DNA from: a virus
Virus record (IMG/VR): IMGVR_UViG_3300026885_000038
Reading direction: 5' to 3' (one strand)
DNA length: 31,455 nucleotides
The notes under the pieces are model-generated. The model made no database searches. It had not been told where the DNA came from and saw only the letters and a list, made by a program, of their open reading frames with translations. Shown in pieces: positions 5,223 to 25,465 of this stretch. A program made the translations under genes and the position numbers. Each line of letters begins with the position of its first letter. Position 1 is the first letter of the stretch.

Positions 5223-5259
5223 AGGTGTTATTTCGCGTGGGAGTATAAAAAAATCACGT

Positions 5260-7728: not shown

Positions 7729-7734
7729 GATCAC

Positions 7735-8173: not shown

Positions 8174-8211
8174 GTTCTCCACTTAATAATTAGATTTAAG
8201 GTTAATAAAGA

Positions 8212-8928
8212 TTAGGTTCGAGATTCATCCTTTTCGTTCCTCATCTCCCTCAATCTGTACAGAAAGGTGTTATCGACCTCATTTATCTTTTTCACAAGCT
8301 TCAAACCGTTAAGAAATCTGAAATCAGTAAACTTGTCAGCCACCGTCATTAATTGTACAAATCTCAACAACTGTAGCCCGTAATAGTTGCGTATGCCCGT
8401 ATCCCACAAGGTATATAACTCGTCCTTATCCACGTTGTCAAACACGCCAGTGTTAAACGCCTGTATCAACAACGTTTTGTAGCTAACGTCGGAAACGGCC
8501 TGCCCTCCAACCACAACCTTCCACCAATTCCTAACCTTCACACCTCTAGCCTCAAAGAATGACAATGGTGGTGTGTCAACCCATATCGTCTGTACGGAAT
8601 ACCTTGGTCTATCCTCCTCGATAACCACTAATCCCCTCTCCTTAAAGGGCTTATCAGTCCCATCATACCAGTATGATGGGTGATCCAAGTGTAACACAAC
8701 CTTGTTACCGTCAAAATCTAGTTTTGGATAGTCCTCGTACCTATCCAGTGTAATACAAACGTAACCCAACTCCTCACAAGCCTTCCTTATCGAGTAAGTC
8801 TTCCCACTGCCAGTATGCCCAACAACCTGTATTACGTTTTCGTTTGCCAACTCCTGCTTTATCCTGTCTATTGCCCTGGGCCTAAACGTTGTATCCTTTG
8901 GTTTAGATGTGGAGGACAATTCTATCAC
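8212..8928 (-). CDS. P-loop ATPase resembling a degenerate RFC large subunit
   Basis: GHTGSGKT followed by ACEELGY. No clear DExD Walker B. Same operon as the RFC small subunit. Confidence 0.55.
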   Translation of the reverse strand: MIELSSTSKPKDTTFRPRAIDRIKQELANENVIQVVGHTGSGKTYSIRKACEELGYVCITLDRYEDYPKLDFDGNKVVLHLDHPSYWYDGTDKPFKERGLVVIEEDRPRYSVQTIWVDTPPLSFFEARGVKVRNWWKVVVGGQAVSDVSYKTLLIQAFNTGVFDNVDKDELYTLWDTGIRNYYGLQLLRFVQLMTVADKFTDFRFLNGLKLVKKINEVDNTFLYRLREMRNEKDESRT

Positions 8929-9568
8929 CCAAACAGATTATTTGGTAGCCACACACATCACACTTTGAATAGGTACGCTTAAACTCCTTGTCGTTGATCA
9001 TCGTTTCAATCTCCGTAGTAACGTCGAAAGGTTCCACCTCCTCCCAATTGCCCCAATCCAGGAAGACAACGTAAGCCTTGTCCGCATTTACCATCCACGA
9101 GTAAATCGACAACTGGCGTAAAATGTCCTCAGTCACGTAACCATTGTAACCAGTCTTCCAATCAACGATAACATACTTATCCCCAGCCTTCAACAACAGG
9201 TCGATTACACCAACTATCGTAACACCCTTATACTCCTTCGTAATCTTCTTCTCCGAGGCAACAAACCTGTACATTCTCTCCTTCCTCCAAACCTCAAACT
9301 TGGCAAAGTTAAGCAAGGAGTTCTCGATCTGTTCACTGTGTATACTTGAGATGGTGTGGTAAATTTGTGACAACCTTAACTTAATCTCAGTAAGCGTATA
9401 ACCCTCCACATCACCCTTGTAAAATTCCTCAATAATCTTGTGTGTAATCGTACCCCTCTCTAGACTCTCCTTGTAGTATGGGGCAATCTCCTTAAAGCCC
9501 ATTATCTTGTAGTAAGCCATTCTGGGGCATTCGAAGTACATGTTAAGCGTTGTTGGGCTTACCCTCAC
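8903..9568 (-). CDS. Cas4/AddB-like PD-(D/E)xK exonuclease with 4-Cys Fe-S staple
   Basis: ECPR, RGTITH, IDLL, IVDWKTG, QLSIY and CDVCGYQIIC. Confidence 0.9.
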   Translation of the reverse strand: MRVSPTTLNMYFECPRMAYYKIMGFKEIAPYYKESLERGTITHKIIEEFYKGDVEGYTLTEIKLRLSQIYHTISSIHSEQIENSLLNFAKFEVWRKERMYRFVASEKKITKEYKGVTIVGVIDLLLKAGDKYVIVDWKTGYNGYVTEDILRQLSIYSWMVNADKAYVVFLDWGNWEEVEPFDVTTEIETMINDKEFKRTYSKCDVCGYQIICLGDRIVLHI

Positions 9569-10475
9569 TGGTTACCACCTCGTAGAATAACCTAGCGACA
9601 ACACTACTTAACTGTATTAACGGGTTTGCCCCCTCCTTCACAGCCTGCTCAGCCCTAGCCAGCTCCATAAGGCAAACGGCACGATACCTCATATCAAGTT
9701 TTGAGATACTTTGGTAAATCTTTCTAAAGGCTAAGTTGTAGTCCAACCCCAAGTTCGTGTACACATCCTCCAATTGCTTTAAAGCCTCATTCAGATCTCC
9801 CTTCATTGCCAACTGTAACACGGAGTTCATTAGGTTGGGTGATACGAGTAACTTAAGGTAGTTAAGGCTAATGTTACCACCAATAATACTCTGCTCAAGT
9901 AAGTTCATTGTCCTCCTCAGGTCACCCTCACTCAACTCCACAATACCATTAATAACCTGTTGTACCTCTTCCTTACTCTTGAACTTCACGTTCTCCTCCT
10001 TAAGCACCCTAACGATCATCCTTGTAAGTTCGTCCTTTGGTATGGGCTTAAACCTAAACAACGAGCACCTACTTTTTATTGCGTCTATAATGTTACTCTC
10101 ATTGTTGCCAGTAAGTATGAAGTGCGTGCTCTTCGTCTCCTCCATAATCCTCCTTAATGCAAACTGGGCATTCTGTGTCATTGCGTCAAACTCGTCCAGT
10201 AGTATAATCTTCTCCTCTACGTTCATGGCTATTGGCTTTATCCTCTCCCTTATGAACTCCAGTGTCCTGTCGTCACTGGCGTTGAACTCTATAATTGGTA
10301 TACCAGCGTCGTGTGCGAATGCATAGGCAGTACTTGTCTTTCCTAAACCTGGAGGACCTACAAACATGAGGTGTGGAAAGTCCTTTCTCCTAATGAACTC
10401 CTTCAATGCCGCCACTATCTCCTCTTGTCCAACAATCTCATCCAACGTTTTTGGACGGTACTTTTCCGACAACAT
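9543..10475 (-). CDS. rfcS: Replication factor C small subunit (clamp loader)
   Basis: EKYRPKTLDEIVGQ, GPPGLGKT, EFNASD, LDEFD, SRC. ATG 10475 overlaps the polB stop (TAATG). Confidence 0.95.
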   Translation of the reverse strand: MLSEKYRPKTLDEIVGQEEIVAALKEFIRRKDFPHLMFVGPPGLGKTSTAYAFAHDAGIPIIEFNASDDRTLEFIRERIKPIAMNVEEKIILLDEFDAMTQNAQFALRRIMEETKSTHFILTGNNESNIIDAIKSRCSLFRFKPIPKDELTRMIVRVLKEENVKFKSKEEVQQVINGIVELSEGDLRRTMNLLEQSIIGGNISLNYLKLLVSPNLMNSVLQLAMKGDLNEALKQLEDVYTNLGLDYNLAFRKIYQSISKLDMRYRAVCLMELARAEQAVKEGANPLIQLSSVVARLFYEVVTSEGKPNNA

Positions 10476-12655
10476 TACTCCCACAACTCCAGTGTGATAC
10501 CGTTTGTTATTCCCAAATTCTTGAATGGTCCTTCAATGACCGCCTCAATCTGCCTCTTCCAATCCACAATAGGCTTTGGTAACCCGTCATCAACAACACA
10601 CACATCAGCCGAGATTCCGTTTTCGTAACCCTTACACCAAACGTACCTTATCCTACTACCATAACCGTAGTTTTTGTTAAAGTATTTGTTAGCCAGGACT
10701 GCCGCTCTAACGTGCGGCGGAAGGGTTTTGTACTCGTCAATTCTCCTCGTAATACCCCTGTACAAAGCCACATCCTCCAAGGGTAACTCCTTTATCTTTC
10801 GTATGAAGTCATTCTTAACCTGTATTACCTCAGTCATAGGTCTTCCCTCAAGTAGTAGCTCAAACACCTTCTCCTCCAACTCCTGAGTAATCTTGGAGGA
10901 GTCAGTCCTTATCGCCTCAAATCCCTTAATGTCAATCTCGTTAACCTGTTTTCCCTTCTTCCACACAACCTTAGCCGCATACCTCTTCTTCACACCAGTG
11001 AAATAGACTGCCCCCAAGTACTTCTCAAACTTTAGGCTTAAGGTAGGTTCGGACTTCAACGAGTACTTCTCCATGAAGTATCGACGTAGATCATTCGTCA
11101 ACTGCTTGGACAATTCCTCCGCCTTTTCGAAGGGCACTTGTATGAATACGCTGTCTGTGTCACCGTACAACGTTTTATGCCCGTAACGTTTGGACTGTTC
11201 AATAACGTACTGTATACCCTCCCTAGCCAACGCCGTTATTGTACTTGCACAATCCCTGTCGTAAAACCTAGCCTGCGGATGACCCATGTAACCGTATGCT
11301 GAGTTTATTATGTATTTTAAAGCCATCACCTTCTTCTCCAAAGTTTTATACTCCTCGCTATCGCCAGGGTACTTCTTCATCTCATCCTCCAACTCCTCCC
11401 TCCTCTTTAGTAGAATCATAGCTAACTTGGGCATTAACCCCGTCTTATCCTGCCTAAAAGCCCATATCTCATCAGTAATACGCTTTAACTTTGTCTCTGG
11501 AGACACGTTGAAACTAATGATAATGGATGGGTAATACCTCGACATATCTAGGACGGCAACGTTCTCATACCTTCCCGATGGTGGATTTAACACGATTGCA
11601 CCCCTAACGGGGTTCTCATCCCTATCGACACTAGTTGGCAACACCACACCCTCTCTCTTTGCCAACCTAAGTAGTAAAGTGTCAATCACAATACTCGTGT
11701 AATACTGGAATGAGAAGTCCTCCACACCAACTACGTTCTTCAAAGCCTGGTAGTAATCAACAATTGAGTACTTTTTATCTATCATCACAATCCTCCATAC
11801 ATCACGAATGTTGTAACGTATTATCTCGTTGGGATTTTTGTTAACCTTCACAAACTCCACTGCCTCCTCCTTCTTCTCCAATCCCTCCGCAACAGTTACC
11901 TCCTTCAACTTATAACTCCTCGCCCTAACAAACTCCTTATAACCGGAGAGTAAATCCAACTCCAACCATCCGTTGTAAGTAAACTTCACGTTGAGGTGTT
12001 TTGCCCTGGCGTAAAGGTACCTCATGTCAAAACTAACATTCCACGCCGTAACAATATCCACATCCTTTATCAGGTTGTAAACCTCCTGTATCAAGTCCTT
12101 TTCGTTAGTGAAGCTACGGGCGTGGAGGTACAAAACGTACTCCTTGTCGTTTGCAGTTAGCTTGTAGTAACCAGTCCTTTCCTTTGCTACATCATTCAGG
12201 TAATAGGCGTGATAATTACCCTGTATGTGTACTGTCACAGCAACAATCTTGTATATGGGGTTTTCCTCAGAGGGTAATTCACCGTTCTCATTATCCACCT
12301 CAATGTCAATATAGGCAACAACGGGCTTAATCGTACAGGGTTTTGCCTCAAGTGTGTCAATGTCATGGCATTCCTGTATATCCTTGTCTATGAGGTACCT
12401 TCTCACGTAGGGTATATCAGCCTCGTAATGCCTCTCATACTTCTCCCTAGCAGTCCTTACATCAATGGGAGTGTTGACGTAAACCCTATCCAACGGCTCA
12501 CCAAACACACTCCTGTACACCCCAAGTTTTGACGGTACGTAGAAGAATGGTCTGTACTGGTAAACTTTGTACTTTTTACCGCTTTCCGTCCTCCACCAGA
12601 TGCCTATATCTCTCTCGTTTACAACACGGCTAGTTATGTACAAACCAACCGTCAT
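10475..12655 (-). CDS. polB: RNA-primed family B DNA polymerase with proofreading domain
   Basis: IDIE, WNVSFD, YNIRDV, DMSRYYPS, KYIINSAYG, YGDTDS. ATG 12655 overlaps the dpdA stop (ATGA). Confidence 0.97.
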   Translation of the reverse strand: MTVGLYITSRVVNERDIGIWWRTESGKKYKVYQYRPFFYVPSKLGVYRSVFGEPLDRVYVNTPIDVRTAREKYERHYEADIPYVRRYLIDKDIQECHDIDTLEAKPCTIKPVVAYIDIEVDNENGELPSEENPIYKIVAVTVHIQGNYHAYYLNDVAKERTGYYKLTANDKEYVLYLHARSFTNEKDLIQEVYNLIKDVDIVTAWNVSFDMRYLYARAKHLNVKFTYNGWLELDLLSGYKEFVRARSYKLKEVTVAEGLEKKEEAVEFVKVNKNPNEIIRYNIRDVWRIVMIDKKYSIVDYYQALKNVVGVEDFSFQYYTSIVIDTLLLRLAKREGVVLPTSVDRDENPVRGAIVLNPPSGRYENVAVLDMSRYYPSIIISFNVSPETKLKRITDEIWAFRQDKTGLMPKLAMILLKRREELEDEMKKYPGDSEEYKTLEKKVMALKYIINSAYGYMGHPQARFYDRDCASTITALAREGIQYVIEQSKRYGHKTLYGDTDSVFIQVPFEKAEELSKQLTNDLRRYFMEKYSLKSEPTLSLKFEKYLGAVYFTGVKKRYAAKVVWKKGKQVNEIDIKGFEAIRTDSSKITQELEEKVFELLLEGRPMTEVIQVKNDFIRKIKELPLEDVALYRGITRRIDEYKTLPPHVRAAVLANKYFNKNYGYGSRIRYVWCKGYENGISADVCVVDDGLPKPIVDWKRQIEAVIEGPFKNLGITNGITLELWE

Positions 12656-13644
12656 AACCAACCCTCCACGTTCTCCATGTACGACACGTAATCGTAAAGC
12701 CCCTTATCCTTCAACGCCACGTCAATTAAGTTCGAACTGTACAGGTTGTAAACGTGGTCGTAGAAATCCAGTAACCTCCACAGGTTGTGTAGTGTTAGCT
12801 TTACATACCAGTTGATGTCTATGTAAACGTCCTTCGTAAAATTAAACCTAGTACAGACTGGGCAATGGCACCTAACCTCAGATGAATACCTCTTGCCAAT
12901 GTAAATAGCCGAATTCTGTGTGTAAAACCTTCCGTATGCCGCCGCCATGCTGTACTTGCTACTATCCATACTTATCAGCTCAAAGTAATTCCTCTTCAGT
13001 AAGGCCGCACTAATTAGCATCGCACCCTCATTACCAGCACCAAGCAAGTGTATCTTTTTAACACCGTTTTGGTAAAGGTATAACATTTGCCTAACCATGG
13101 TGGCGTAGTTTGTAGTCGGTCTAAAGGCTATTGCCACACCCTCAAGGTCATCAACGTAATCCCTTATTGCGTACTTGTACCAAATTTCAATCTGTTCTAA
13201 AGTATCACCGTGTAGGATACCCCACAGTGGCTTATCCACCTTATCCAACATAATCTTGTTATTTTCACCAGTCATCTTGGCGTAATCCTCAATCTTCTCC
13301 AGGCTAACAGACTCCATGGTATCGTTAACTCCTGCAGGTGCGTAGTCCAAACTTAAAGCCCAGTCCGCATACTCGTTCTGAAAGTCAATCAGCTCATTGA
13401 TATTCACGGATAAGCCTATAGTGAAGGTTTGCAACCCACCACTATCAACGAAGACAAAGGCGTTACAGTCCTTCAACAATTCCTTCCTTAACTTTGCCTT
13501 AGTTTGTTTCGCAGATCCATAGGATAACATTACCTTCTTGTATCCTATCGGTGATTCGTCGCACCAGTAAATCATCTCCTTTGGCAAACTGTGTAGTACC
13601 GCTAAGTAACTACCCGTAATAGCTGGAAAGAAGTACAGATTCAC
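12652..13644 (-). CDS. dpdA: TGT-fold guanine transglycosylase, DpdA-like (probable DNA base exchange)
   Basis: VDSGG, LDY, IHLLG, MDSS and zinc site CHCPVC..HN. Catalytic barrel only, no PUA extension. Coupled to polB. Confidence 0.8.
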   Translation of the reverse strand: MNLYFFPAITGSYLAVLHSLPKEMIYWCDESPIGYKKVMLSYGSAKQTKAKLRKELLKDCNAFVFVDSGGLQTFTIGLSVNINELIDFQNEYADWALSLDYAPAGVNDTMESVSLEKIEDYAKMTGENNKIMLDKVDKPLWGILHGDTLEQIEIWYKYAIRDYVDDLEGVAIAFRPTTNYATMVRQMLYLYQNGVKKIHLLGAGNEGAMLISAALLKRNYFELISMDSSKYSMAAAYGRFYTQNSAIYIGKRYSSEVRCHCPVCTRFNFTKDVYIDINWYVKLTLHNLWRLLDFYDHVYNLYSSNLIDVALKDKGLYDYVSYMENVEGWL

Positions 13645-14123
13645 TGACTACACCTCCTTGTAACCATAACACTGTTGTTTCGTATTCCTCTCATTAACAC
13701 ACAGTAGTGTTTACCAGTAACCTCAACACTTAGCCGTTTTGGTTGAAGACAGGAATGGAGTATCTCGTAAAGTAAGCTAGTGTATTCCTCCTGTACTCTG
13801 GGATACCTGGCTAAGTCCCTTGCTATTCTACTGAACTTCGACATGCCCAGTATCCTTCCGTTGGGTACGTACACGATCTCTATCTTCATATCCACTGGAA
13901 GGAAGTGGTGTGGGCATAACATGTATGTATCTTTAACTACAATCTTAACCTCTCCTTGATGGTTGCTTGGGAAGGTTACACAGTACTTCTCCTTTATCTC
14001 CTCCAACGGGATGAGGGTAGTATACTCCTCCAGCCACCTCTGCATCCTCAATGGTGTCCTGCTGAAGTGTGGGTCGCTTAGATCTACGTTTTTAAATACG
14101 TCAATAGCCCCTTTCTCTGCCAT
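13641..14123 (-). CDS. folE: GTP cyclohydrolase I
   Basis: LCPHHFLP, GMSKFSR, VQE, HYCVLMRG. Confidence 0.93.
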   Translation of the reverse strand: MAEKGAIDVFKNVDLSDPHFSRTPLRMQRWLEEYTTLIPLEEIKEKYCVTFPSNHQGEVKIVVKDTYMLCPHHFLPVDMKIEIVYVPNGRILGMSKFSRIARDLARYPRVQEEYTSLLYEILHSCLQPKRLSVEVTGKHYCVLMRGIRNNSVMVTRRCSQ

Positions 14124-14784
14124 GTGCCACCACGTGTATCTGTAAGTATGCCTTGAACATTGTATACCTTTGACTTACCAGGTCAAACAACCTCGTAAAC
14201 ATGTTGAGGTCGCTTGTGGTTACGTAAACGGGGTAATCCCTCAACAACATGGCGTAGTCCTGCAATATCTCATCTAGGTCTTCCGGTAGCTTACTCGTTA
14301 CGAACTTAAATATCGTCCTATCTGGGCTATACTCGTTATTGGCATACCTGTAATTCACCCCTGAACTTCTCAGCTTTGGAGAGACAGCCCAGTAAACCTT
14401 GGAGTGATCACTGTTCAATGCCTTCTGTATCTCATCGGGTATTCTAACCGTGCCATTCGTCTCTATCACAAACGCCTCGAATCTATTGTACAACTTTTTG
14501 TACAATGAATAAACTTGTGTTATGTACATCGTAGGCTCCCCACCCGTTATCACAAGTACTCTAATTCCCTTCTGTTTGCTTACATCAGCCACCCACTTTG
14601 CTATACTGTCAATATCTCGTAAAGTATAGTCACCCGTATCGTAGCTGTACTTAGTGTCACACCAAACGCACCTTAAGTTACATCCGTAGAACCTAAGGAA
14701 GGTTGATGGGTAACCCCACAACGGTGGCTCGCCGTTAATACTAGTAAACACCTCGTTGACTGGTAACGCATTAGTTGACGGCAT
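14101..14784 (-). CDS. queE: 7-carboxy-7-deazaguanine synthase (radical SAM)
   Basis: EVFTSINGE, RFYGCNLRCVWCDT, ITGGEP, IETNGT, VSPK. Confidence 0.95.
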   Translation of the reverse strand: MPSTNALPVNEVFTSINGEPPLWGYPSTFLRFYGCNLRCVWCDTKYSYDTGDYTLRDIDSIAKWVADVSKQKGIRVLVITGGEPTMYITQVYSLYKKLYNRFEAFVIETNGTVRIPDEIQKALNSDHSKVYWAVSPKLRSSGVNYRYANNEYSPDRTIFKFVTSKLPEDLDEILQDYAMLLRDYPVYVTTSDLNMFTRLFDLVSQRYTMFKAYLQIHVVAHGRERGY

Positions 14785-14786
14785 GA

Positions 14787-15197
14787 CTATTCCACCACTA
14801 CGTTGTAGTTTATTCTGGATTTATCGTTTTCTTCCACCTTTATGGAGTAGGACTGTACTTTAGCCTTCCTACTGTTCACCTTCTTTATTATCTCACCAAA
14901 GGGTATGGCAGATTCAAGGTACATGGCAAGTCTTTCTGCCGATGCGTTATCCCCAACGTAATCGTTTAACGACTTGTGATCAATCCCATCAATCACCGGT
15001 TTCACGTACTCGTCCAACTCCATAAAGTCCATATAATAACCTACCTCCGGTAATTCAGTAATATCGGCTGTGATACAGATTGTTATCAAGTAGTTATGCC
15101 CATGTAGATTACGGCATTTAGTGTCGTGTGCCAACGCTATCCTATGTGCCATACTAGCCCTGTAATCTTTACAAATCTCTAGTATTCTTTGCGTCAT
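14787..15197 (-). CDS. queD: 6-carboxy-5,6,7,8-tetrahydropterin synthase
   Basis: AHRI, CRNLHGHNY, MDF, IDHKSLND, SAERLA. Confidence 0.95.
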   Translation of the reverse strand: MTQRILEICKDYRASMAHRIALAHDTKCRNLHGHNYLITICITADITELPEVGYYMDFMELDEYVKPVIDGIDHKSLNDYVGDNASAERLAMYLESAIPFGEIIKKVNSRKAKVQSYSIKVEENDKSRINYNVVVE

Positions 15198-15364
15198 CAG
15201 TCCTCACCTAAGTCCCTTCTCACCAAGTCCCGTATGTACTCTGCGTACGTCCTGTATCCCTTCTCTTTCATACTTCTATCCACTCTTGCCCTCCATTCTG
15301 ACGGTAGGGACACCGTCAGAACCCATAGATCCTTCGTTTTTTCTAAACTTTTTTCTTCATACAT
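15197..15364 (-). CDS. Ribbon-helix-helix (CopG/NikR-like) transcription regulator, 55 aa (not in ORF track)
   Basis: Translated by hand: MYEEKSLEKTKDLWVLTVSLPSEWRARVDRSMKEKGYRTYAEYIRDLVRRDLGED*. TGATG overlap with queD. TTTTTATA box at 15387-15394. Confidence 0.85.
   Translation of the reverse strand: MYEEKSLEKTKDLWVLTVSLPSEWRARVDRSMKEKGYRTYAEYIRDLVRRDLGED
15296..15321. repeat. Perfect 10-bp inverted repeat inside the RHH gene
   Basis: TTCTGACGGT-AGGGAC-ACCGTCAGAA. Confidence 0.9.
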
Positions 15365-15378
15365 TGAGTAAAAAGGGC

Positions 15379-15403
15379 GACACTAATATAAAAAGTCTGT
15401 GTT
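15379..15403 (-). promoter_or_regulatory. Promoter of the RHH-queD-queE-folE-dpdA-polB operon, with an AACACAG motif
   Basis: TATA at 15387-15394. ACAC and GTGT half-sites flank it. Confidence 0.65.
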
Positions 15404-15428
15404 TTCTACCCAAAAACTATGGAATTAT

Positions 15429-16358
15429 TCAGTCATACCACCAATTGTGGTATTCACAAGTATTACAACCTATTCCCCTCTGCTTCAACACGGAACAGGA
15501 GGCTGGGAATAGCTTCTTCTGCTTCACCTTTTCATACAACTTGATGACGTGGTATTTACTTATATTGTAGTCGAAATTCTCCCATCCCATCTTCCTCAAA
15601 ATGTTGACAACACTCTCAACATCGTAACCAAGGTAGATTAGCTCAAGGGCAAACTGCGTCCTTATAAAGTGATCAGGTTTCTTAGTGTACGCCTGTCTAA
15701 AAACACAAGGTCGTACAATCTCACTAACCGTACTTAACTCCACATCGTCAATCTTGTAACTAGTAACCTCAAAGGACACGTCCTTAACCTTCCTACTGTA
15801 ATCTACATAAACGGTTATGTCGTACTCCTTGCCGTGATGGATGATGAGAGGATTCGGATGTTCACTGTCCTTAAGTATAGTGTTGAAATCGGCATGACAC
15901 GGCACGTAGGTGCAATACCTTCCGTTTAAGTGAATTGTGTTTGGTATACGAATCAGTCCATTACCCGTAGCCAACCTTATGCTGGTGTTGTAGTCCCAAC
16001 TTTTTAACTGTAATTCATCTCGTATGTAGTTTATAAATCCCATAAAATACAGTTTTGTCATTTCATTCAATGGGATCGGCTTTATCTTCAGATAGAAGTG
16101 AAAACCCTTCCTTCCACTAAAAACGTGTACGTGTTGAAAATCACTAAAGTACTCACAAAGGGCGTTGTTGTCCTCATAACTAGTAACACCATCCAAGTCA
16201 AAGATGAAGTAGTTAATTTGGCTAGAGAATTTGTAGGGGTTATAAAAAAGATTTGCAATACCATTATACCTGTTTATTACGGGTTGTATATCATCCACTA
16301 CCTTTCTAAAAAACTTACCTCCGTTTTCAATACCAACCTCAAACTTCAATCTCCTCAC
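15429..16358 (-). CDS. AEP primase (PriS-like) fused to a PriL-like C-terminal Fe-S domain
   Basis: FDLD, SGRKGFH, IRIPNT, then RPC..H..R..SC..L...G.C..C. GTG start overlaps the PCNA stop. Confidence 0.85.
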   Translation of the reverse strand: MRRLKFEVGIENGGKFFRKVVDDIQPVINRYNGIANLFYNPYKFSSQINYFIFDLDGVTSYEDNNALCEYFSDFQHVHVFSGRKGFHFYLKIKPIPLNEMTKLYFMGFINYIRDELQLKSWDYNTSIRLATGNGLIRIPNTIHLNGRYCTYVPCHADFNTILKDSEHPNPLIIHHGKEYDITVYVDYSRKVKDVSFEVTSYKIDDVELSTVSEIVRPCVFRQAYTKKPDHFIRTQFALELIYLGYDVESVVNILRKMGWENFDYNISKYHVIKLYEKVKQKKLFPASCSVLKQRGIGCNTCEYHNWWYD

Positions 16359-17068
16359 TTTACTCTCTGGTTAAGTAGATAGGCTATCACCGAGTACTTG
16401 TCTGGTTTCCCTATCATTAACTGGTAAGCCTTACCCTTCATCAAAACTAGGCTAATCTTGCCACTTAACACGCTAGTTATCTTGTTGATTAGGTTGGCGT
16501 CAAAATAGACGTCGAAGTCCTCAGTGGCCTTTTCACCGTAGAATATACGTGATGACTCTCCCTCTAGGTACTTAAACTTTATCATCAATCCCTTTTCGTT
16601 ACTTACAAGCTCCATTGTATTCTCATCCGTCTTTATGCTAGCAAGTGCGTCTGCGTCTACTGTATAGTTCGCTATGATTGTCCTTTCGAAAACTGGCAAC
16701 TGTCCAAACTCGAACGACTTGGGTTTCATAATGTTGTCAAATACGGTATCCTCCCTCATCTTCACCACGTAGCTGGTGTCACTATTGGAGATTATAATAT
16801 CTGTATCCGTCACAGTAAACTCAGCGATTGGATTATACTTAAACAGGTTTCTTATTACCTTCATTGTACTATCAGCCGAGATCACTACCTTCTTATCCAA
16901 CGGCAGGTACTCCCTGCTGTACTTGGCGTGTATCCCTACCATCCTACCCTTATCCATCAAATCCACGTTTACTGTCTTCTCGTCGGGTGTTAGCTTTACA
17001 ACATCTATGTACCCATCCAAACTTACTTGCTTTATTACGTCGTACAACCTATTCAAGTCGAACTGCAT
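16355..17068 (-). CDS. pcna: PCNA-like sliding clamp
   Basis: 237 aa, two-domain length, MDKGRMVGI segment, located among replication genes. Confidence 0.7.
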   Translation of the reverse strand: MQFDLNRLYDVIKQVSLDGYIDVVKLTPDEKTVNVDLMDKGRMVGIHAKYSREYLPLDKKVVISADSTMKVIRNLFKYNPIAEFTVTDTDIIISNSDTSYVVKMREDTVFDNIMKPKSFEFGQLPVFERTIIANYTVDADALASIKTDENTMELVSNEKGLMIKFKYLEGESSRIFYGEKATEDFDVYFDANLINKITSVLSGKISLVLMKGKAYQLMIGKPDKYSVIAYLLNQRVK

Positions 17069-17070
17069 TT

Positions 17071-17985
17071 TTACTCACCCATTAACGAAGTTATGCCCTT
17101 ACCAGTAATGTCATATTCTCCTGGTTTTAGTTTTTCCGGATTCTTGGTAGTCACAACTCTAGCCTTGTAACCGTCCTTATAGAATGTGTAAATGACGTAG
17201 TCGCTCTCAAACATTATTATATCAACCCACTTTGGTACCTTTCTCTGTTGCGTCACCTCGCCGTCGTTAATTATCTGTTCCATTGTAGTGTACATAGTGT
17301 AGATCACCCCCTTTCTTGCGGTATTTAACGCAAGGTTGTGTATATGCCTCAGTAGGAATCTCCTCTCCTTCCACAGGTTTAGGTTGGCTATTCCCTGGAA
17401 GGCTGTCAAACCATGGTTTGCCCTCATTACAAATTCGCTAATCTGTTCAAGTATCTCCACGCCGTCAATCAACACCCAGTCCACACCATTCTCCCCAAAC
17501 TTGTGGAATATCTCCTCAATAACGTCAAACACCTTCTTTGCTGTAAGAACTAGAGTTCTATCGTCAGTCTGCACCCAGTACTTAACTGGATCGTAGACAT
17601 GTATATCCTTCCTATTCTTGTACAAATTCCACCTTATTGGGGAGGTCTTCCTGTCGAAGGATAACGCCAATATCTCTCCTGGGAATGACAACGCCAATGT
17701 AGTCTTACCCTCACCCTTGTCACCATATATAACGAATACCTCCTTACCAGTCGTTAACTCCTCCTCTATCTCGATCTCTCCACCCTTTTCTTCGGTTTTT
17801 GTAGTGGTATTGTTTACATTAACCACGGGCTTTTCCTCCTCCTTTGTCGTTGCCCTCTCGTCACTAACCAATTCATCCAGTTGTACCTCGGCTTTCCTCT
17901 CCGTTTGTTTTGTCGTCTCCTTCTTCTCCTCCTTCACTTCTTCCTTCTTTTCCTCTCCAACCAATTCATCGAATATATCCGACAT
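17071..17985 (-). CDS. P-loop ATPase, Sak4/AAA_24-like, with acidic disordered N-terminus
   Basis: YGDKGEGKTT, VLIDG. About 75-aa Glu/Lys/Thr-rich N-terminal region. Confidence 0.65.
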   Translation of the reverse strand: MSDIFDELVGEEKKEEVKEEKKETTKQTERKAEVQLDELVSDERATTKEEEKPVVNVNNTTTKTEEKGGEIEIEEELTTGKEVFVIYGDKGEGKTTLALSFPGEILALSFDRKTSPIRWNLYKNRKDIHVYDPVKYWVQTDDRTLVLTAKKVFDVIEEIFHKFGENGVDWVLIDGVEILEQISEFVMRANHGLTAFQGIANLNLWKERRFLLRHIHNLALNTARKGVIYTMYTTMEQIINDGEVTQQRKVPKWVDIIMFESDYVIYTFYKDGYKARVVTTKNPEKLKPGEYDITGKGITSLMGE

Positions 17986-17996
17986 GTGTTGTCACC

Positions 17997-18803
17997 TCAA
18001 ACTAAGGGTATTGGAGTAATAGGGATTATTCCTTGAACCATAAACTGCGTCACCCCGTTCTTGTCAATCTGCAAGGTCCCATACATGTAAAGCTCGCTAC
18101 CCTCATCGTACTTGTATAAAGGTGGAGGAATCCAACAGGTTAATGTGCTGTCGGGATTGTTAGGATCGCTTAGTTCGTAAACCCCAAACACCACGTTACC
18201 CTTATCATCCTTCTTGTAGTTCGCCCTCGTTACGATACCCTGTGTTGCCCTTAGGTCAAACTCGTCGTAATACTGCCCGTTCATTCTGCTCAACATGTTA
18301 TATGCGTTATTTATCTCAAATTCAGCGAAGTTTGTGGTGTCTTTCTTCAATATAGCCAAAACCTTTTGTGGGTCGACTGGTTTTCCATTGACGAAGTTCG
18401 TGTTTGCGGTCGCAAGCAACGCACCCTTACCCGTCTCAACAACGTTGACAGTGTAGAGGTGGAATAGTTGTGCGTTCTGGTAGAGAACGCTCATGTCATC
18501 GAAAAGGGTTATAACTCCCTTCCTATCGCCCTCCTCCGTACTGTATATGACGTAAACCCTGGCAATTTTCCTCTTTGCCTTCTGTATCGGCTCCCTAAGT
18601 CCGTAGACGATCACCTTTAAGTCCTTACCAACCGGCTTTGCCAACATCTTTGCCCTGTAGTAGATGAACGCCTGCGTAAACCTCTTCTTCTCGTCTGGTA
18701 TTGCGGCAAACTTAGTGTCCGCCAACTCCTTCACCCTCCTTTTAACCTCATCTACACTCATGTGTAGTCTTTCCGCCAGTGTTGCTATATCCCTTTCACT
18801 CAT
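17997..18803 (-). CDS. Probable OB-fold ssDNA-binding protein (RPA-like)
   Basis: N-terminal helical segment, then beta-rich OB-like repeats. Located in the replication operon. Confidence 0.55.
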   Translation of the reverse strand: MSERDIATLAERLHMSVDEVKRRVKELADTKFAAIPDEKKRFTQAFIYYRAKMLAKPVGKDLKVIVYGLREPIQKAKRKIARVYVIYSTEEGDRKGVITLFDDMSVLYQNAQLFHLYTVNVVETGKGALLATANTNFVNGKPVDPQKVLAILKKDTTNFAEFEINNAYNMLSRMNGQYYDEFDLRATQGIVTRANYKKDDKGNVVFGVYELSDPNNPDSTLTCWIPPPLYKYDEGSELYMYGTLQIDKNGVTQFMVQGIIPITPIPLV

Positions 18804-19005
18804 CTTCCACCACCTTCAACAGTTCTCCATCTTCGTACAACCAGCCATCGTTTCTTTTGGCATATTCCATTGCTAACATCCTTGCGTATGTGGGGCTTAC
18901 ATCAAGCAACAGGGAAATCTCCAAAACTTTCAACCTTCTCACCCCACGTTGCCTGATGTGTTCATCCAAACTGGACAGGAGTTTTTCTCTGTTGTACTTT
19001 TGCAT
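18796..19005 (-). CDS. Small winged HTH protein, 69 aa
   Basis: EISLLLDVSPTYARMLA HTH pattern with beta-wing. First gene after a promoter. Confidence 0.65.
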   Translation of the reverse strand: MQKYNREKLLSSLDEHIRQRGVRRLKVLEISLLLDVSPTYARMLAMEYAKRNDGWLYEDGELLKVVEDE

Positions 19006-19008
19006 GTG

Positions 19009-19039
19009 TGTGTTAGTGTAACACAGGTTTAAAAAGTTT
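19009..19039 (-). promoter_or_regulatory. Promoter AAACTTTTTAAA with 7-bp palindromic operator TGTGTTA-GTG-TAACACA
   Basis: TATA at 19028-19035. Inverted repeat 19009-19025 lies between TATA and ATG. Confidence 0.7.
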
Positions 19040-19047
19040 GTTTTGTG

Positions 19048-19079
19048 AAGGTTAGAAAGTCCTCGTTGTCTATTCTAGA
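19048..19079 (-). mobile_element. Possible tiny tnpB 3'/omega-RNA fragment
   Basis: Reads SRIDNEDFLT, similar to SRVENEDFLT recalled from Sulfolobales TnpB C-termini. Based on recall only. Confidence 0.35.
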
Positions 19080-19083
19080 AAGA

Positions 19084-19929
19084 TCATTTCGTTTGGCTGA
19101 CGTTTTTCGTAGTGTTTGTGATTGATGGGTTGGAAGACAACCTAGCTAGCTCCCTGAGGAATTCGTCCACGTTCACGTTTATCTTCACACCGTGTTTCTT
19201 AGCTGACAACATAACACTGCCCCACATCTGTAACGTTAATTCCTTTGCGTTTTTGTACCACTCAAGTAGCTTGTCACTCACCCTCCCATCTATAAAAACG
19301 TCATTAACGATCACTACCCTTGGGTCGATGTCGTAAAAGTACTTAACAACGTATGGCTTATGCCTCTTGATAAACTCTATCTCAATGGGAAGGATGAACT
19401 CGCTAGAGAATGGTTTTGGGTGGTAGACAAGTAGTCCGTCATCGTGGCAGTAATTATCACCACCACTCTCCAAATACCTCCACAGCAAGTCCGTGTCACT
19501 TCTCCACCCATATCCTGCGTTACCAAACTTAGGATTGCCCCAATCCTCCTCAAAACCGCCAAGTCTTCTAAAAACCTCGGTTTTAACCGTTAGGTTGGTA
19601 CCAACGGAATGATATGCCTGCCCAAAGAACCTACCGTTACTGTACACGTAACCCGTAATAATGTCACAACCCTTCCTAATATTCCTCAACAGGTTTTGAT
19701 ACCAATTTGTACTTGGGTATGCGTCATCGTCGATGAAGGAGATGTAAGGGGTTGTAACACCCTCAGCCACAAGATTCCTGACGACATACTCGTTGACGGT
19801 TGGATCGTAATACGGTATTACCTCTGCCTCTGTGTACTGGCGGATGTATGACATAGTCTTAAATATTGACTCCCTCAACAAAGTTGGTATAACAATAGTT
19901 GTGTACCTACCCCGTGTGCTCTCCCTCAC
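19084..19929 (-). CDS. GT-A fold (GT2-like) glycosyltransferase
   Basis: IVIPT, FIDDD (DxD), LGGFEE, SDTDL. Confidence 0.85.
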   Translation of the reverse strand: MRESTRGRYTTIVIPTLLRESIFKTMSYIRQYTEAEVIPYYDPTVNEYVVRNLVAEGVTTPYISFIDDDAYPSTNWYQNLLRNIRKGCDIITGYVYSNGRFFGQAYHSVGTNLTVKTEVFRRLGGFEEDWGNPKFGNAGYGWRSDTDLLWRYLESGGDNYCHDDGLLVYHPKPFSSEFILPIEIEFIKRHKPYVVKYFYDIDPRVVIVNDVFIDGRVSDKLLEWYKNAKELTLQMWGSVMLSAKKHGVKINVNVDEFLRELARLSSNPSITNTTKNVSQTK

Positions 19930-20876
19930 GCCTTCACACCTCGTGTTTGCGTTAAACCTAACCCCTTCAACATGTCACCAACCACACGTTTAACGTCTTC
20001 CGCCCACCTATTCACTGAGAAGAACTCCCTTGCCCTCTTCCTTAACAAAGCCCTGCTTATCTTAGTGACTTCATTCACCCCATTCACGAAGCAGTCTATA
20101 TCGTCGTGTTTACAGTAAACTCCCCCATCCATCAACACACCAGTCCTAACCTCCTTACCGAAGGACAACAACTCGGATGTGCCTTCACCACTAGTAACAA
20201 CTGGACAACCCGACACCATTGCCTCCATTGCCACAATCCCCAGGCTTTCAATACTGGACAACGACCTCCAATCACTGGGCATTACTAATGCGGACGCATG
20301 CGACAACAACTCGTACTTTTCATCGTCATCTATGTTAATCCTGTATTCTACACCATCCCTGTACCTCCTCATTAAATGCCTGGCGTAATAACCATCAGAG
20401 AATTTACCAACATGTCCAGCCAAAATAATCCTTCTTCCTAGCTTTCTAGCCACCTCTATTGCCAAGTCAGGTCTCTTTATCTCACTAAACCTACCTAGAA
20501 AGAGTAAGTAACCCTCATCACCTTCTGGCTTATCGATATAACTTACCCCAGGATAGATCACAAAACCTGGTAACTTATACATGTTCGCAATTGCACGGGT
20601 TGTATACATGTTGTAACGTAAGCTAGCAGGATCGGGATGGAATGGTACACCAAGAACTAAACTATCTAAGTTTTGAAAGTATTTTTGGTGAGAGAAGTCG
20701 AACATGGCATCATAATTTGTGTTGATGTCATCGTAAGTCATCACATTATCCGTCCTTGGTACACCGAAGATATCGGCGTTTAATGCATTACCTAAGTCGT
20801 AAGCCAACCTTTCTATCCCCCCGTAACGAAGTGGGGGTGTCTTCTCCTCCTTAGTCGATATGACTGCAAATTTCAC
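19926..20876 (-). CDS. GT-B fold (GT4-like) glycosyltransferase
   Basis: PPLRYGGIER, FLGR..K, ESLGIVAMEAM (Ex7E). Confidence 0.9.
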   Translation of the reverse strand: MKFAVISTKEEKTPPLRYGGIERLAYDLGNALNADIFGVPRTDNVMTYDDINTNYDAMFDFSHQKYFQNLDSLVLGVPFHPDPASLRYNMYTTRAIANMYKLPGFVIYPGVSYIDKPEGDEGYLLFLGRFSEIKRPDLAIEVARKLGRRIILAGHVGKFSDGYYARHLMRRYRDGVEYRINIDDDEKYELLSHASALVMPSDWRSLSSIESLGIVAMEAMVSGCPVVTSGEGTSELLSFGKEVRTGVLMDGGVYCKHDDIDCFVNGVNEVTKISRALLRKRAREFFSVNRWAEDVKRVVGDMLKGLGLTQTRGVKA

Positions 20877-21837
20877 GATTGTTCACCATCTCATGGATGT
20901 AGTCCATTACCATTATGTTTAAGCCCTCCGTTAGAGGTAGAAACTCCTTACTTGGCCAGAATTTCTTTAGTCTAGCGTTATCCAGTAGTAGGCTGTTGGG
21001 ATCTACAGGACGGGGTTTCACACCCCACACAACCTCCCCATCCCACTCTGTATACCTTTTGGCTAACTTAACTATCTGATCCAACGTCTCAGCGTCGTCC
21101 TTTGCGACATTTATTACGTTACCAACATCGTTCACCCTCTCCAAATGATCCAATGCGTACTCGTACATTGAAACGTGATCAGTATAATGTATCCACTGTC
21201 TTTGGGATTGCGGATAACCATGGTAACTTATCTTCTTAAAACCACACAACATTGACAACACTGTCTTCTCCACGAAATAACCCCTAGCCTCTTCCGGTAA
21301 CTTAAACACATCCCTGTGATAGGTGTTTGTCATTCTAAAGATCAAGTAGTTTTTGCGTCGTGTGGAGTAGTGATGGTGTATAAGCATCTCCTGCCCAATC
21401 TTGCTTATTGCGTAGGGTGAGGATACATCCGTGATATTTACATCCTCCTCCTTAAACTTTTTTGAGAAATCCGCCACGGAAAGATATGGGTAAACCTCGG
21501 CTGTACTTGAGTGAATTAGAAAGGTGTCCTTGTGTTTGTCAAGGTATTGTAATACATTCTGTACCAACAAAAGATTGTTTACCAAGTACTGTTGTGAATT
21601 GTCGTAACTATATCTCACGGGAGTGATGCTTGCGAGGTTTATAAGTACATCCAGTTCAACGTTGTTTGGTATAGGGTTGCTCGCCAAATCGACCTCAACG
21701 TAATCCACGCCTTCAACCCTATTCCTTGAGAAACCGTCATTCCTTACAAAACCCACTACTTTATAACCATTCTTCACAAGTCTTGAGGACAGTTTTGATC
21801 CTATAAAACCCGTTACACCTGTTATTCCTACTTTCAT
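20851..21837 (-). CDS. NAD-dependent NDP-sugar epimerase/dehydratase (extended SDR)
   Basis: ITGVTGFIGS, SSTAEVY, PYAISK (YxxxK). ATG at 21837. Confidence 0.9.
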   Translation of the reverse strand: MKVGITGVTGFIGSKLSSRLVKNGYKVVGFVRNDGFSRNRVEGVDYVEVDLASNPIPNNVELDVLINLASITPVRYSYDNSQQYLVNNLLLVQNVLQYLDKHKDTFLIHSSTAEVYPYLSVADFSKKFKEEDVNITDVSSPYAISKIGQEMLIHHHYSTRRKNYLIFRMTNTYHRDVFKLPEEARGYFVEKTVLSMLCGFKKISYHGYPQSQRQWIHYTDHVSMYEYALDHLERVNDVGNVINVAKDDAETLDQIVKLAKRYTEWDGEVVWGVKPRPVDPNSLLLDNARLKKFWPSKEFLPLTEGLNIMVMDYIHEMVNNREICSHID

Positions 21838-21914
21838 CAACAGATGTTACAGAAGATTGAATAATAAGTCTTGTTGGAGTTGGTATTCTCGTGGTAGAAG
21901 AATACGTGTACGCC

Positions 21915-22208
21915 TCAATCGTACAGAATACGTAACAACACTAGCTTTGTGGGTAGTTTACCGTGGTGTTTCCTCCTTAGATGAGACAACCACTCATCGA
22001 CATTCTTGAAGGTACTATACTGTACATAATCCCCAAGTATTTTTCGTACATCACCATTCCTCAAGTCTACAACCTTTACGACCCTAGCCCTCACCCTTTC
22101 GTTCACCCTCACAATTCTACCAGGAGGAAGAGTCTGATTCCTAACAATGGCGTAGAAATCAGGTGTGGAGAGTAAATAACGAAAAAACCTTTCGTTCTCC
22201 ACCTTCAA
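21915..22208 (-). CDS. ASCH/PUA-like small protein, 97 aa
   Basis: Basic beta-rich N-half, then DYVQYSTFKNVDEW (compare ASCH SGFxSxxEW). TTG start 6 nt after the gat-queC stop. Confidence 0.5.
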   Translation of the reverse strand: MKVENERFFRYLLSTPDFYAIVRNQTLPPGRIVRVNERVRARVVKVVDLRNGDVRKILGDYVQYSTFKNVDEWLSHLRRKHHGKLPTKLVLLRILYD

Positions 22209-22214
22209 CAGGTA

Positions 22215-23591
22215 CTATTGCATGACTGGATCTTTTAAACCATTTATCTCAAAGGCCTTCTTTCTCATAAAACACGGTCCACACCTACCACAGTGTTTCT
22301 TCCTCCCCTCATAACAACTCCACGTAAGCTCGAAGGGTACTTTCAGCTCATAACCTAGCTTTACAATCTCATGTTTCATTAGATTTCCAACTGGCATCAA
22401 CAACCTTATTCTCCTCCTTGGTTCAGTTGCCAATGGTAAAACCCTGTCCAACAGGATGTTAAACTCCATCTCATTATCTGGATAGGCACCTGATTCCTCC
22501 AGGTTTATCCCAGTACCAACTGCGTCAAACCCGTTAGCCTCAGCCAACGCCACTGCGACACTAATGAAGACTAGATTTCTAGCTGGTACCCACTCGTATG
22601 CGTACTCTGCCCCAACAATTCCTCCCCTATCTTTCGCTATTGGTATCTTACTACCCTTAAGTAAGTTAGTCCCTCCAATAACCTTGAACATGGAGGAGGT
22701 ATCCATTGTGATCAACTCAAGGTTGTAGTATTCCGAGATTTTCTTTACAGCCGTGAGCTCAGGTCCCTCAGCCTTATGATGGTAATTGAAGTGTAGTAAC
22801 GTAACCTTATGCCCCTCATTCAGTAGTTTTGCCGTAGCCACAGTACTATCCAGCCCACCACTGGCTATCATTAACGCCTTCATCTGTTCAGCCGTCCTCA
22901 ACAGGTTATACTTAGTAAAGCTATCTTGCGAGAAACAATACATTGTGTAAGGCTCAACATACGTTGTGTTCACCTTACTGTAAACCTCACGGGGATAGTA
23001 CCTCTCCAAGGACGTGATAACTAAGTAATTATTCTCAAAGTCGTTGTGTATGTAGGCGGGCTTATAGTCTACACTAACGCATAGCTCTCCCCTTCTCACA
23101 TTTGTGAAGACCATGGCGTGCGATCCCCTAAACTCCTCCGAGAGGAATTTACTCACACCCTCGTAAGACCCAATCCTTGAGAATATACGTGGTAAGACGG
23201 CACTGTCGACGTTTGTATCCAGTATTAAACCGTACTTCTGTATCAGCTCCTTATCGTTTGCAACCACACCGTTGTGTGAAACAATCCAGTCGTTATATTG
23301 AAAGGGTTGGATATCCTTTGGGCTTTTGTTAGGTACGTACTCCGTTGTCGGCTCAGCCCTATTATTCCCTATAATCATCTTAGGTTTCATCCTAATCAGG
23401 AAGTCCTTGACAATGTCGTAGTCAGGTGTACCAGTACCCTTCAATGTTTCAACCTCTCCATTCTCCCTTATTGCGTAAACCCCCCAACTATCCCTTCCTC
23501 TGTCTGAACTATCTACAAAGGATTTGGAGATCTTACTCGCCTTCTTGTCATCCAACTCCTCACGAAGGTAGACACCGAATATGCTACACAT
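22215..23591 (-). CDS. queC: GAT-QueC fusion (class II glutamine amidotransferase plus preQ0 synthase; archaeosine-forming)
   Basis: N-terminal MC, RGRDS, HNG, VDS. QueC motifs SGGLDS, VPARN, YPD and SCY..HCGRCGPC. Confidence 0.95.
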   Translation of the reverse strand: MCSIFGVYLREELDDKKASKISKSFVDSSDRGRDSWGVYAIRENGEVETLKGTGTPDYDIVKDFLIRMKPKMIIGNNRAEPTTEYVPNKSPKDIQPFQYNDWIVSHNGVVANDKELIQKYGLILDTNVDSAVLPRIFSRIGSYEGVSKFLSEEFRGSHAMVFTNVRRGELCVSVDYKPAYIHNDFENNYLVITSLERYYPREVYSKVNTTYVEPYTMYCFSQDSFTKYNLLRTAEQMKALMIASGGLDSTVATAKLLNEGHKVTLLHFNYHHKAEGPELTAVKKISEYYNLELITMDTSSMFKVIGGTNLLKGSKIPIAKDRGGIVGAEYAYEWVPARNLVFISVAVALAEANGFDAVGTGINLEESGAYPDNEMEFNILLDRVLPLATEPRRRIRLLMPVGNLMKHEIVKLGYELKVPFELTWSCYEGRKKHCGRCGPCFMRKKAFEINGLKDPVMQ

Positions 23592-23593
23592 GA

Positions 23594-23625
23594 GTGTGTG
23601 TTACACACAGTAACTTAAAAAGTTT
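23594..23625 (-). promoter_or_regulatory. gat-queC promoter AAACTTTTTAAG with palindromic GTGTGT-GTT-ACACAC operator
   Basis: TATA at 23615-23622. Inverted repeat 23594-23608. Same layout as the 19009-19039 promoter. Confidence 0.7.
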
Positions 23626-25117: not shown

Positions 25118-25465
25118 TTAGATGTTACCAACCCTTCCATATACGAAGTAGTAGCCCAAGGTTACGCTCACGCTACCTCCCTCAGTCATCAAACCTAGGT
25201 ATTTTGAAGGACCTATCCTCAATACTCCCTCGTCATGTTGTTCAACATAGGTTGGCGAGGAAGGTGTAACGGTTACCTCCTGAATGACCACAGTACCACT
25301 ATAAATTTGTAATGTGACGGTACCTAAACCAGCCCTTGAGTCCAAGCTAAGCTGTATCTTGTTAATAACCAGGGACTGGTTATTCATTGTTGACGCAACT
25401 GTTGCCATCACAGTACCTACGAGATGCCTACTGTAAATTATATCGTAAACCTGTACCTCATCCAC
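25118..25465 (-). CDS. Beta-rich putative virion protein, 115 aa
   Basis: Alternating hydrophobic strands and low charge. Last gene of a four-gene operon. Confidence 0.5.
   Translation of the reverse strand: MDEVQVYDIIYSRHLVGTVMATVASTMNNQSLVINKIQLSLDSRAGLGTVTLQIYSGTVVIQEVTVTPSSPTYVEQHDEGVLRIGPSKYLGLMTEGGSVSVTLGYYFVYGRVGNI

Follow-up and report, generated by a model that had tools for sequence, protein, structure and literature searches.

7-Deazaguanine bases in DNA are a major anti-restriction strategy of phages, and deazaguanine DNA systems, the Gat-QueC fusion protein and the transglycosylase subfamilies DpdA1-4 are already published. The genes of phage 9g give 2'-deoxyarchaeosine (dG+) in E. 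coli (PMC6884629), and DpdA2 of Vibrio phage nt-1 has been shown experimentally to insert preQ0 into DNA (PMC10516641). For the Crenarchaeota, the published record consists of fragments only: singleton DpdAs, and an unexplained base in Sulfolobus virus STSV2. STSV2 encodes a DpdA (STSV2_15) and ArcS2, and dCDG (2'-deoxy-7-carboxy-7-deazaguanine) is present at 0.04% of G (PMC10516641). Twelve Ligamenvirales and two Bicaudaviridae are listed with DpdA or G+ genes (Hutinet 2019, PMC6884629). Here we describe a stretch of 31,455 nt (IMG/VR record IMGVR_UViG_3300026885_000038, hereafter the window; analysed region 8,212-23,591) that likely represents a segment of an uncultured virus, or of a mobile element resembling a virus, from hot-spring Sulfolobales. 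We consider it probable that this element encodes its own 7-deazaguanine DNA-modification system, with a clamp-borne DpdA-type enzyme and dG+ as the predicted product, which would protect the viral DNA.

The window encodes a complete predicted preQ0 pathway. Nine genes form a minus-strand operon running from 15364 to 8212, in the order ribbon-helix-helix (RHH) protein, QueD, QueE, FolE, a protein like the tRNA-guanine transglycosylases (TGTs), family B DNA polymerase (PolB), the RFC small-subunit-like protein (RFC-S), a Cas4-like nuclease and a P-loop protein. Genes were called from a listing of open reading frames (ORFs) together with matches to Pfam, NCBIfam and PHROG profiles (Table 1). The junctions read from the sequence are TGATG (RHH/QueD), GTGA (FolE/TGT), ATGA (TGT/PolB) and TAATG (PolB/RFC-S), and GGTG-type ribosome-binding sites stand ahead of most internal genes of the operon. 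Small ORFs occupy the RHH position in the related contigs L029, L030 and L007. FolE has CPHH at 70-73 and Cys 151 in 'GKHYC', which we take to be its zinc ligands. Gat-QueC is intact at its nucleophile Cys2, in its amidotransferase motifs (RGxD and HNG), in its PP-loop (SGGLDS) and in its zinc cluster (CGRCGPC), and the fusion is predicted to be both the preQ0 synthase and the archaeosine-forming amidotransferase.

A first reading of this DNA, made from its letters alone (the original prediction), had proposed the nine-gene run, the four junctions, a Gat-QueC fusion and a complete preQ0 pathway. Profile matches place the genes at the coordinates it gave, the junctions are present as it described them, and the active-site motifs of FolE, QueD and QueE, as well as those of Gat-QueC, are intact. 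Its weakest label was 'rfcL-like' for 8212-8928: the P-loop part stands on generic matches, and the product is possibly a clamp-loader subunit like RFC-large or Rad17.

The fifth product of the operon is predicted to be a transglycosylase that consists of the catalytic domain only. Residues 1-327 of its AlphaFold (AF2) model (pLDDT 93.3) superpose on residues 21-353 of the archaeal TGT (ArcTGT) of P. horikoshii (1iq8) with Z 25.2 and an rmsd of 3.7 over 301 aligned residues, giving the protein a modelled TGT TIM-barrel fold. The C-terminal tRNA-binding domains of ArcTGT (C1, C2 and PUA) have no counterpart in the superposed model. A profile built from 71 homologues finds 1iq8 in the PDB at E 5e-21, Salmonella DpdA (7ui4) at E 1e-9, and TGTs of bacteria and eukaryotes with E values between about 1e-9 and 1e-12. 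Ten positions (D67, S68, G70, D100, H199, D227, C259, C261, C264 and H286) are invariant in the 71-sequence alignment. They include both TGT catalytic aspartates and a CxCxxC...H zinc site; we propose a zinc-dependent, two-aspartate TGT mechanism.

The enzyme belongs to a large family. An exhaustive HMMER search returned 371 representative relatives (clusters at 50% identity), mostly of 330-400 aa, and PF01702 recognises 51 of the 71 aligned members (E <=0.01). A scan of IMG/VR with the same protein found no relative, and a word-index homology search gave one match only, a 95% copy on a 1.5-kb contig.

Throughout the family, the gene tends to lie beside a DNA polymerase gene. In eight of ten independent contexts the polymerase gene is directly downstream, usually overlapping (PolB in the window, L005/6, L029, L030, L032, L033 and L034; PolA in L031), and in these polymerase-linked contexts que genes or a Vut_1 precursor transporter usually lie upstream. 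In L031 (3346-6908) the family gene overlaps and precedes a gene for a UDG-exonuclease-PolA fusion, not PolB, so that the coupling to a replicative polymerase holds across polymerase families. In L029 and L030, synteny with the window runs from AAA_24 and a 240-aa protein through PrimPol and the que genes to TGT and PolB. The window PolB is 36-43% identical to the PolBs of L005, L007, L029 and L030. In the window, where the DpdA-like stop and the polymerase start overlap (ATGA), we propose that translation of the two genes is coupled.

The enzyme also carries a probable sliding-clamp docking peptide, resembling the PCNA-interacting protein (PIP) box. The window DpdA-like protein ends ...MENVEGWL and the window PolB ends ...ITLELWE. 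A terminal [LIVM]xx[FWY][FWYLIM], followed by 0-2 residues, is present in 39 of 144 full-length relatives, where shuffled tails give an expectation of 3.5 (~11-fold enrichment); for an exact [LIVM]xxW[FWYLIM] end the figures are 23 of the 144 and 0.11 (~200-fold). Some family members have canonical PIP boxes, for example QTVGLSSWLQ. Within each contig, the same kind of tail is found on the co-encoded PolB and, where present, on the DNA methyltransferase; the tails in L029 are TLGRWL, QKLSRWF and STLNKYF. By eye, none of 20 ArcTGTs has a PIP-like tail. In L007 (55.8 kb; 569-11982), a WW ending (RVWW, KRWW, RRWW and VGWW) occurs on PolB and the DpdA-like protein, and on a Dam methyltransferase and a GT4 glycosyltransferase as well, which suggests that these proteins, glycosyltransferase included, share a docking tail.

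A candidate partner for these tails is encoded in the window itself. The ESM Atlas model of the exact 16355-17068 protein (pTM 0.84) matches PCNA clusters with a TM score of 0.81 over 221 residues. A profile search of the PDB gives weak PCNA matches at E 0.3-0.9 (including 3aix, E 0.29, and 1iz5, E 0.75); the protein has no Pfam match, and an AF2 model from six sequences reached a pLDDT of 33. In L029 and L030, its place is taken by genes for 240-aa proteins. On the strength of the model, the protein is probably a viral PCNA-like clamp and the candidate partner of the PolB and DpdA-like tails.

In phylogeny, the window enzyme groups with viral DpdAs. Our careful maximum-likelihood (ML) tree has 50 rows. 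The window family supplies 29 of them and viral DpdAs seven; the others are 13 ArcTGTs from Thermoproteota and a single bacterial TGT. The reference DpdAs came from annotated phage records, with Cellulophaga phi3ST:2 gp52 (subfamily uncertain) in place of a true DpdA3 (phiST or CP220). ArcTGT is monophyletic (100/97). The bacterial TGT and ArcTGT are split from the window family, DpdA1, DpdA2 and STSV2 DpdA with support of 100/99, on a branch 1.42 long. The window protein lies within a 22-row set (100/98) that contains all seven known viral DpdAs of the tree; its ML sister, weakly, is DpdA2 (71/74). The 'dpdA' call of the original prediction for 12652-13644 thus agrees with the fold, seen by profile and AF2 model, and with this placement among viral DpdAs rather than with tRNA-specific ArcTGTs, the approximately unbiased (AU) test described below being borderline.

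Profile scores set the family apart from the named DpdAs. The family profile gives 287 bits for the window protein, 84-131 for ArcTGT, 81 for the bacterial TGT, 52-72 for DpdA2, 43 for STSV2 DpdA, 34 for phi3ST:2 gp52 and 23-34 for DpdA1 (34 for JenP1 gp32, in fragments); DpdA4 goes undetected by it. Likewise, PF20314 (DUF6610, DpdA4) matches neither the window protein nor its 71 relatives, the positive control HVTV-2 gp68 matching at E 3e-56. Of two PHROG families, phrog_10773 matches 27 of the 71 members and the window protein at E 3e-9, and phrog_887, used for the comparison with DpdA1, matches 11 of the 71, the window protein excluded. The former presumably holds nt-1-type (DpdA2-type) proteins. 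Judged by these comparisons, the window enzyme family appears to belong to no named DpdA subfamily (DpdA1-4), and we read it as a less-derived DpdA lineage branching near the root of the viral DpdAs. In 301 Thermoproteota genomes, the family-profile matches listed are all in 438-631-aa frames (ArcTGT) at <=121 bits, and they include no cellular gene for the short, catalytic-domain-only enzyme.

We propose DNA as the substrate because four independent lines point that way: phylogeny, distribution, synteny and tails. FolE, QueD and QueE would convert GTP to 7-carboxy-7-deazaguanine (CDG), and the QueC half of Gat-QueC would convert CDG to preQ0. The 330-aa DpdA-type enzyme would then put the deazaguanine base in the place of guanine in the virus's double-stranded DNA, using the zinc-dependent mechanism with two aspartates, and the amidotransferase half of Gat-QueC would turn the nitrile into a formamidine, yielding dG+ as in coliphage 9g. 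Because its C-terminal PIP-like peptide resembles that of PolB, we suggest that a sliding clamp (host PCNA or the PCNA-like protein of the virus) probably carries the DpdA-like enzyme, which would act on DNA close behind the fork. The modification would serve to shield viral DNA from host nucleases. The original prediction already had the base installed around replication, an idea supported by the PIP-like tails and by the synteny of dpdA with polymerase across the family. As for its proposal that the virus carries dG+ or a related base, the parts that can be tested in silico hold, dG+ itself being a prediction from genes.

Several findings weigh against our reading. As a single sequence the 330-aa protein has no Pfam match, and its score against TIGR00449 (20.1 bits) is below the curated cut-off of 47.6; the Pfam TGT model also misses known DpdA1, DpdA2 and STSV2 DpdA. 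Compared with Qxx[LIVM]xx[FWY][FWYL], the window tail has the hydrophobic and aromatic positions but lacks the canonical PIP glutamine, and the window PolB ends in W-E, not in a pair of hydrophobic or aromatic residues. For 16355-17068, the assignment as PCNA rests on a language-model structure. Capsid, portal and terminase genes were not recognised in the 31 kb of the window, which leaves the word 'virus' unproven. A product prediction has also failed before in a Sulfolobales virus: STSV2 genes predicted dG+, yet the measured base was dCDG (PMC10516641). Finally, the family profile scores ArcTGT and bacterial TGT above every named viral DpdA; the family keeps an ArcTGT-type CxCPVC zinc motif that is absent from the tested viral DpdAs; and forcing the window row into a clade with ArcTGT costs 28 log-likelihood units, which the AU test does not reject at 0.05 (p 0.072).

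These last three findings would suit an enzyme that is a stripped-down ArcTGT acting on tRNA, boosting archaeosine (G15) in host tRNA and so stabilising translation when hot, with the DNA left unmodified. Such tRNA boosting has been considered for some DpdA-lacking phages (Hutinet 2019, PMC6884629). We nevertheless give this explanation very little credence. The C1, C2 and PUA domains are absent, and the family is set apart from all 13 ArcTGTs at 100/99. The gene adjoins that of a replicative polymerase, usually overlapping it, in the eight of ten contexts described above, and the family's clamp-type tails, which ArcTGTs lack by eye, are shared with PolB and DNA methyltransferases. Moreover, no tRNA gene was found in the window, and ArcTGT and Gat-QueC are already present in all three Sulfolobales genomes checked.

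A different question is whether modified DNA would contain dG+ at all. The end product might instead be 2'-deoxy-preQ0 (dPreQ0), dCDG, dADG (2'-deoxy-7-amido-7-deazaguanine) or a sugar-decorated base made via the glycosyltransferase (GT) and epimerase genes after gat-queC. The precedent of STSV2 speaks for this, as do the base mixtures in nt-1 DNA. In the window, gat-queC is the first gene of a run (19084-23591) that continues with orf97, epimerase, GT1 and GT2 genes, and in relatives' que-dpdA operons a PIG-L-like deacetylase and GT genes are inserted between FolE and the DpdA-like gene (L030:4570-8071, in the order FolE-PIG-L-GT1-TGT-PolB; L007:5022-11122; L005:1384-4985). Against it, the N-terminal nucleophile Cys2 and the amidotransferase motifs of Gat-QueC are intact, and the same fusion yields dG+ in 9g. 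The window GTs have no detectable homology to the relatives' GTs; orthology between the two was sought and not found, which leaves the idea of sugar hypermodification weak. Glycosyltransferases are, besides, common in crenarchaeal viruses for other reasons. On balance we consider a product other than dG+ rather unlikely, and dG+ remains our prediction.

A broader proposal about the family is more tentative, and we hold it with some doubt. The 371 clusters may represent a large, undescribed, zinc-keeping DpdA subfamily, intermediate between ArcTGT and the phage DpdAs, whose gene lies almost always directly upstream of a viral polymerase gene and whose product is tethered to the clamp. Base exchange would then be co-replicative, not a free post-replicative scan. 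If true, fork-coupled exchange could explain high modification levels in such viruses.

The element is linked to Sulfolobales in several ways. Three spacers from one CRISPR array of Metallosphaera yellowstonensis MK1 (L063:1700-4530) match the window (Table 1), and the array's 25-nt repeat, GTTTCATCCTCAAAGGAATTGAAAG, flanks the matching spacer at L063:2571-2610. By sequence, these matches are a direct host or exposure link to M. yellowstonensis, and they make Metallosphaera the best host candidate for the element. Three further Sulfolobales genomes (L064-L066) gave short DNA matches that were rejected as CRISPR spacers, since they lie in Glu/Lys-rich low-complexity coding sequence. The window Gat-QueC is 46-52% identical to copies in Sulfolobales genomes. 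Two conserved viral genes of the window have counterparts in lipothrixviruses and rudiviruses (the SIFV0066/0067 region, AFVs and SIRVs). The spacers, the Gat-QueC identities and these SIFV/AFV/SIRV-like genes together back the Sulfolobales host that had been suspected from the start. The replication module of the window is quite unlike that of the lipothrixviruses and rudiviruses sharing the two genes.

The element could also be a plasmid or integrated island, its system being a self/non-self DNA mark like bacterial Dpd and not a disguise for virion DNA. That no capsid, portal or terminase gene was recognised speaks for such an element, its relative L029 carries a tyrosine integrase, and CRISPR targeting does not separate viruses from plasmids. 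We think this improbable. The two lipothrixvirus/rudivirus-like genes are 52-59% identical to their conserved viral counterparts, and the relative L030 carries an STIV_B116-like gene. Profile scans of the window proteins showed no restriction partners of the DpdB or DpdC-K kind, and the matches listed in the 301 Thermoproteota genomes include no copy of the family. A virus or virus-like element thus remains the likely source of the window.

Other features of the window are less readily connected. It has no detected terminal repeats, and purine loading is strong on the coding strand. A UbiA-type prenyltransferase (5260-6210), a subtilase (6286-7728) and an ATP-cone ribonucleotide reductase (27797-30214) are an unusual gene load for a Sulfolobales mobile element. 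Tandem 57-nt (19-codon) repeats at 270-716 (+) lie within a 312-aa ORF (115-1053) with a weak PHROG match to 'minor tail protein'; its repetitive product may form a fibre or be a protein of the surface. The genes starting at 19005 and 23591, each the first of its transcription unit, have no Shine-Dalgarno sequence. A similar GTTACAC / AACACACAC string precedes both starts (18985-19030 and 23575-23615) and may be a shared promoter or operator motif.

Table 1. Features of the window (coordinates in the 31,455-nt stretch).
Feature	Coordinates	Strand	Evidence and remarks
RHH (NikR-type) small regulator, operon gene 1	15197..15364	-	NCBIfam NikR E 4e-5; stop overlaps QueD start (TGATG)
QueD (6-carboxytetrahydropterin synthase)	14787..15197	-	PF01242 E 2e-20; TIGR03367 E 2e-19; CxxxHGH at C28
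QueE (7-carboxy-7-deazaguanine synthase, radical SAM)	14101..14784	-	phrog_2076 E 3e-40; TIGR03963 E 4e-24; CxxxCxxC at C35
FolE (GTP cyclohydrolase I), short form	13641..14123	-	PF01227 E 2e-29; phrog_2197 E 5e-31
DpdA-like guanine transglycosylase, 330 aa	12652..13644	-	TGT catalytic domain alone; zinc site; tail ...VEGWL
Family B DNA polymerase	10475..12655	-	PF00136 E 4e-48; PF03104 E 1e-16; start ATG overlaps DpdA-like stop (ATGA)
RFC small-subunit-like clamp loader	9543..10475	-	AAA E 4e-17; Rep_fac_C E 6e-9; 43% identity to L007 RFC-S
PD-(D/E)XK (Cas4-like) nuclease	8903..9568	-	PF12705 E 1e-20; 32% identity to L007 counterpart
P-loop protein	8212..8928	-	AAA_33 E 2e-3, generic matches alone; 24% identity to L007 gene with faint Rad17 match
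Primase-polymerase (PrimPol), 309 aa	15429..16358	-	No Pfam match; 25-32% identity to same-position L007, L029 and L030 genes with LigD_Prim-Pol / DNA_primase_S matches
PCNA-like sliding clamp candidate, 237 aa	16355..17068	-	Between PrimPol and AAA_24 genes; ESM Atlas model
AAA_24 / Sak4-like ATPase, replication module	17071..17985	-	PF13479 E 7e-9; 43% identity to L029 and L030 counterparts
Gat-QueC fusion (class II glutamine amidotransferase + QueC)	22215..23591	-	PF06508 E 9e-56; GATase_6 E 4e-9; phrog_10428 E 3e-106, full length
Conserved viral protein gene, function unknown	3076-3753	-	52% identity to lipothrixvirus/rudivirus proteins; phrog_11741 E 8e-50
Conserved viral protein gene, function unknown	30369-31076	+	59% identity to lipothrixvirus/rudivirus proteins; phrog_6678 E 1e-98
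Protospacer	7532..7575	.	43/44 match, second spacer of same MK1 array, L063:1860-1903
Protospacer	17856..17895	.	39/40 match, M. yellowstonensis MK1 spacer L063:2571-2610
Protospacer	25396..25433	.	35/38 match, third spacer of same MK1 array, L063:2248-2285

As the element shows, the entire predicted pathway can be encoded by a virus of the Sulfolobales, with Metallosphaera yellowstonensis as a named host candidate, and it exposes a large uncharacterised DpdA lineage. The original prediction went too far in treating such a system as new to crenarchaeal viruses, since DpdA genes in Sulfolobales viruses (PMC6884629) and the dCDG of STSV2 (PMC10516641) are published. In the literature library that we searched, we found no report of a complete pathway in a Sulfolobales element, nor of this DpdA lineage, its near-universal place ahead of the polymerase gene or its PIP-like tail. 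The conserved gene order and the clamp-type tail together give a testable proposal for coupling DNA base exchange to replication. A thermostable DNA transglycosylase would, in addition, be a useful enzyme.

Each of the known systems shares some of these features. DpdA4 (DUF6610) of the haloarchaeal tailed viruses HVTV-1 and HVTV-2 is the deazaguanine DNA-modification enzyme of archaeal viruses that, like the window, encode PolB and RFC. It is a different family: HVTV-2 gp68 matches PF20314, whereas the window protein and its relatives do not. ArcTGT (P. horikoshii 1iq8 and those of Sulfolobales) has the same catalytic TIM barrel, aspartates and CxCPVC...H zinc site as the window enzyme, and is the highest-scoring known family for the window-family profile. 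Unlike the window enzyme, ArcTGTs are about 490-630 aa long (in 438-631-aa frames), have tRNA-binding C-terminal domains, form a separate clade (100/97) and lack a PIP-like tail.

STSV2 is the known system from the same host order. Its DpdA is, like the window enzyme, a TGT-derived, catalytic-domain-only protein of a crenarchaeal virus. By contrast, STSV2 has no FolE, QueD, QueE or QueC, and its DpdA is without the zinc motif, scores 43 bits and is not encoded beside a polymerase gene. The nearest characterised viral relative is DpdA2 of nt-1 (VPFG_00171; blastp 26% identity, E 2e-9), which shares the DSGGLQ motif. DpdA2 proteins are longer (437-464 aa, compared with 330 aa in the window), align over profile positions 38-257 only, leaving the C-terminal part unaligned, and have no zinc motif. 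Moreover, DpdA2 of nt-1 works with ArcS2, whereas the window enzyme is encoded with Gat-QueC.

Phage 9g and its relatives (Queuovirinae; PMC6884629) have the same five-function gene set as the window: FolE, QueD, QueE, Gat-QueC and a DpdA, in their case DpdA1. Their Gat-QueC is homologous to that of the window over its full length (37-39% identity), and in the 9g-type phage JenP1 the genes for dpdA, clamp and polymerase follow in the same order, a likeness to the window family. The 9g-type DpdA1 is without the CxCxxC zinc motif and scores 34 bits with the family profile, whereas the window enzyme keeps its zinc site. The window differs further from the 9g type in its hyperthermophilic archaeal host, its archaeal replisome (PolB, RFC and a PCNA-like candidate) and the PIP-like tail on its enzyme.

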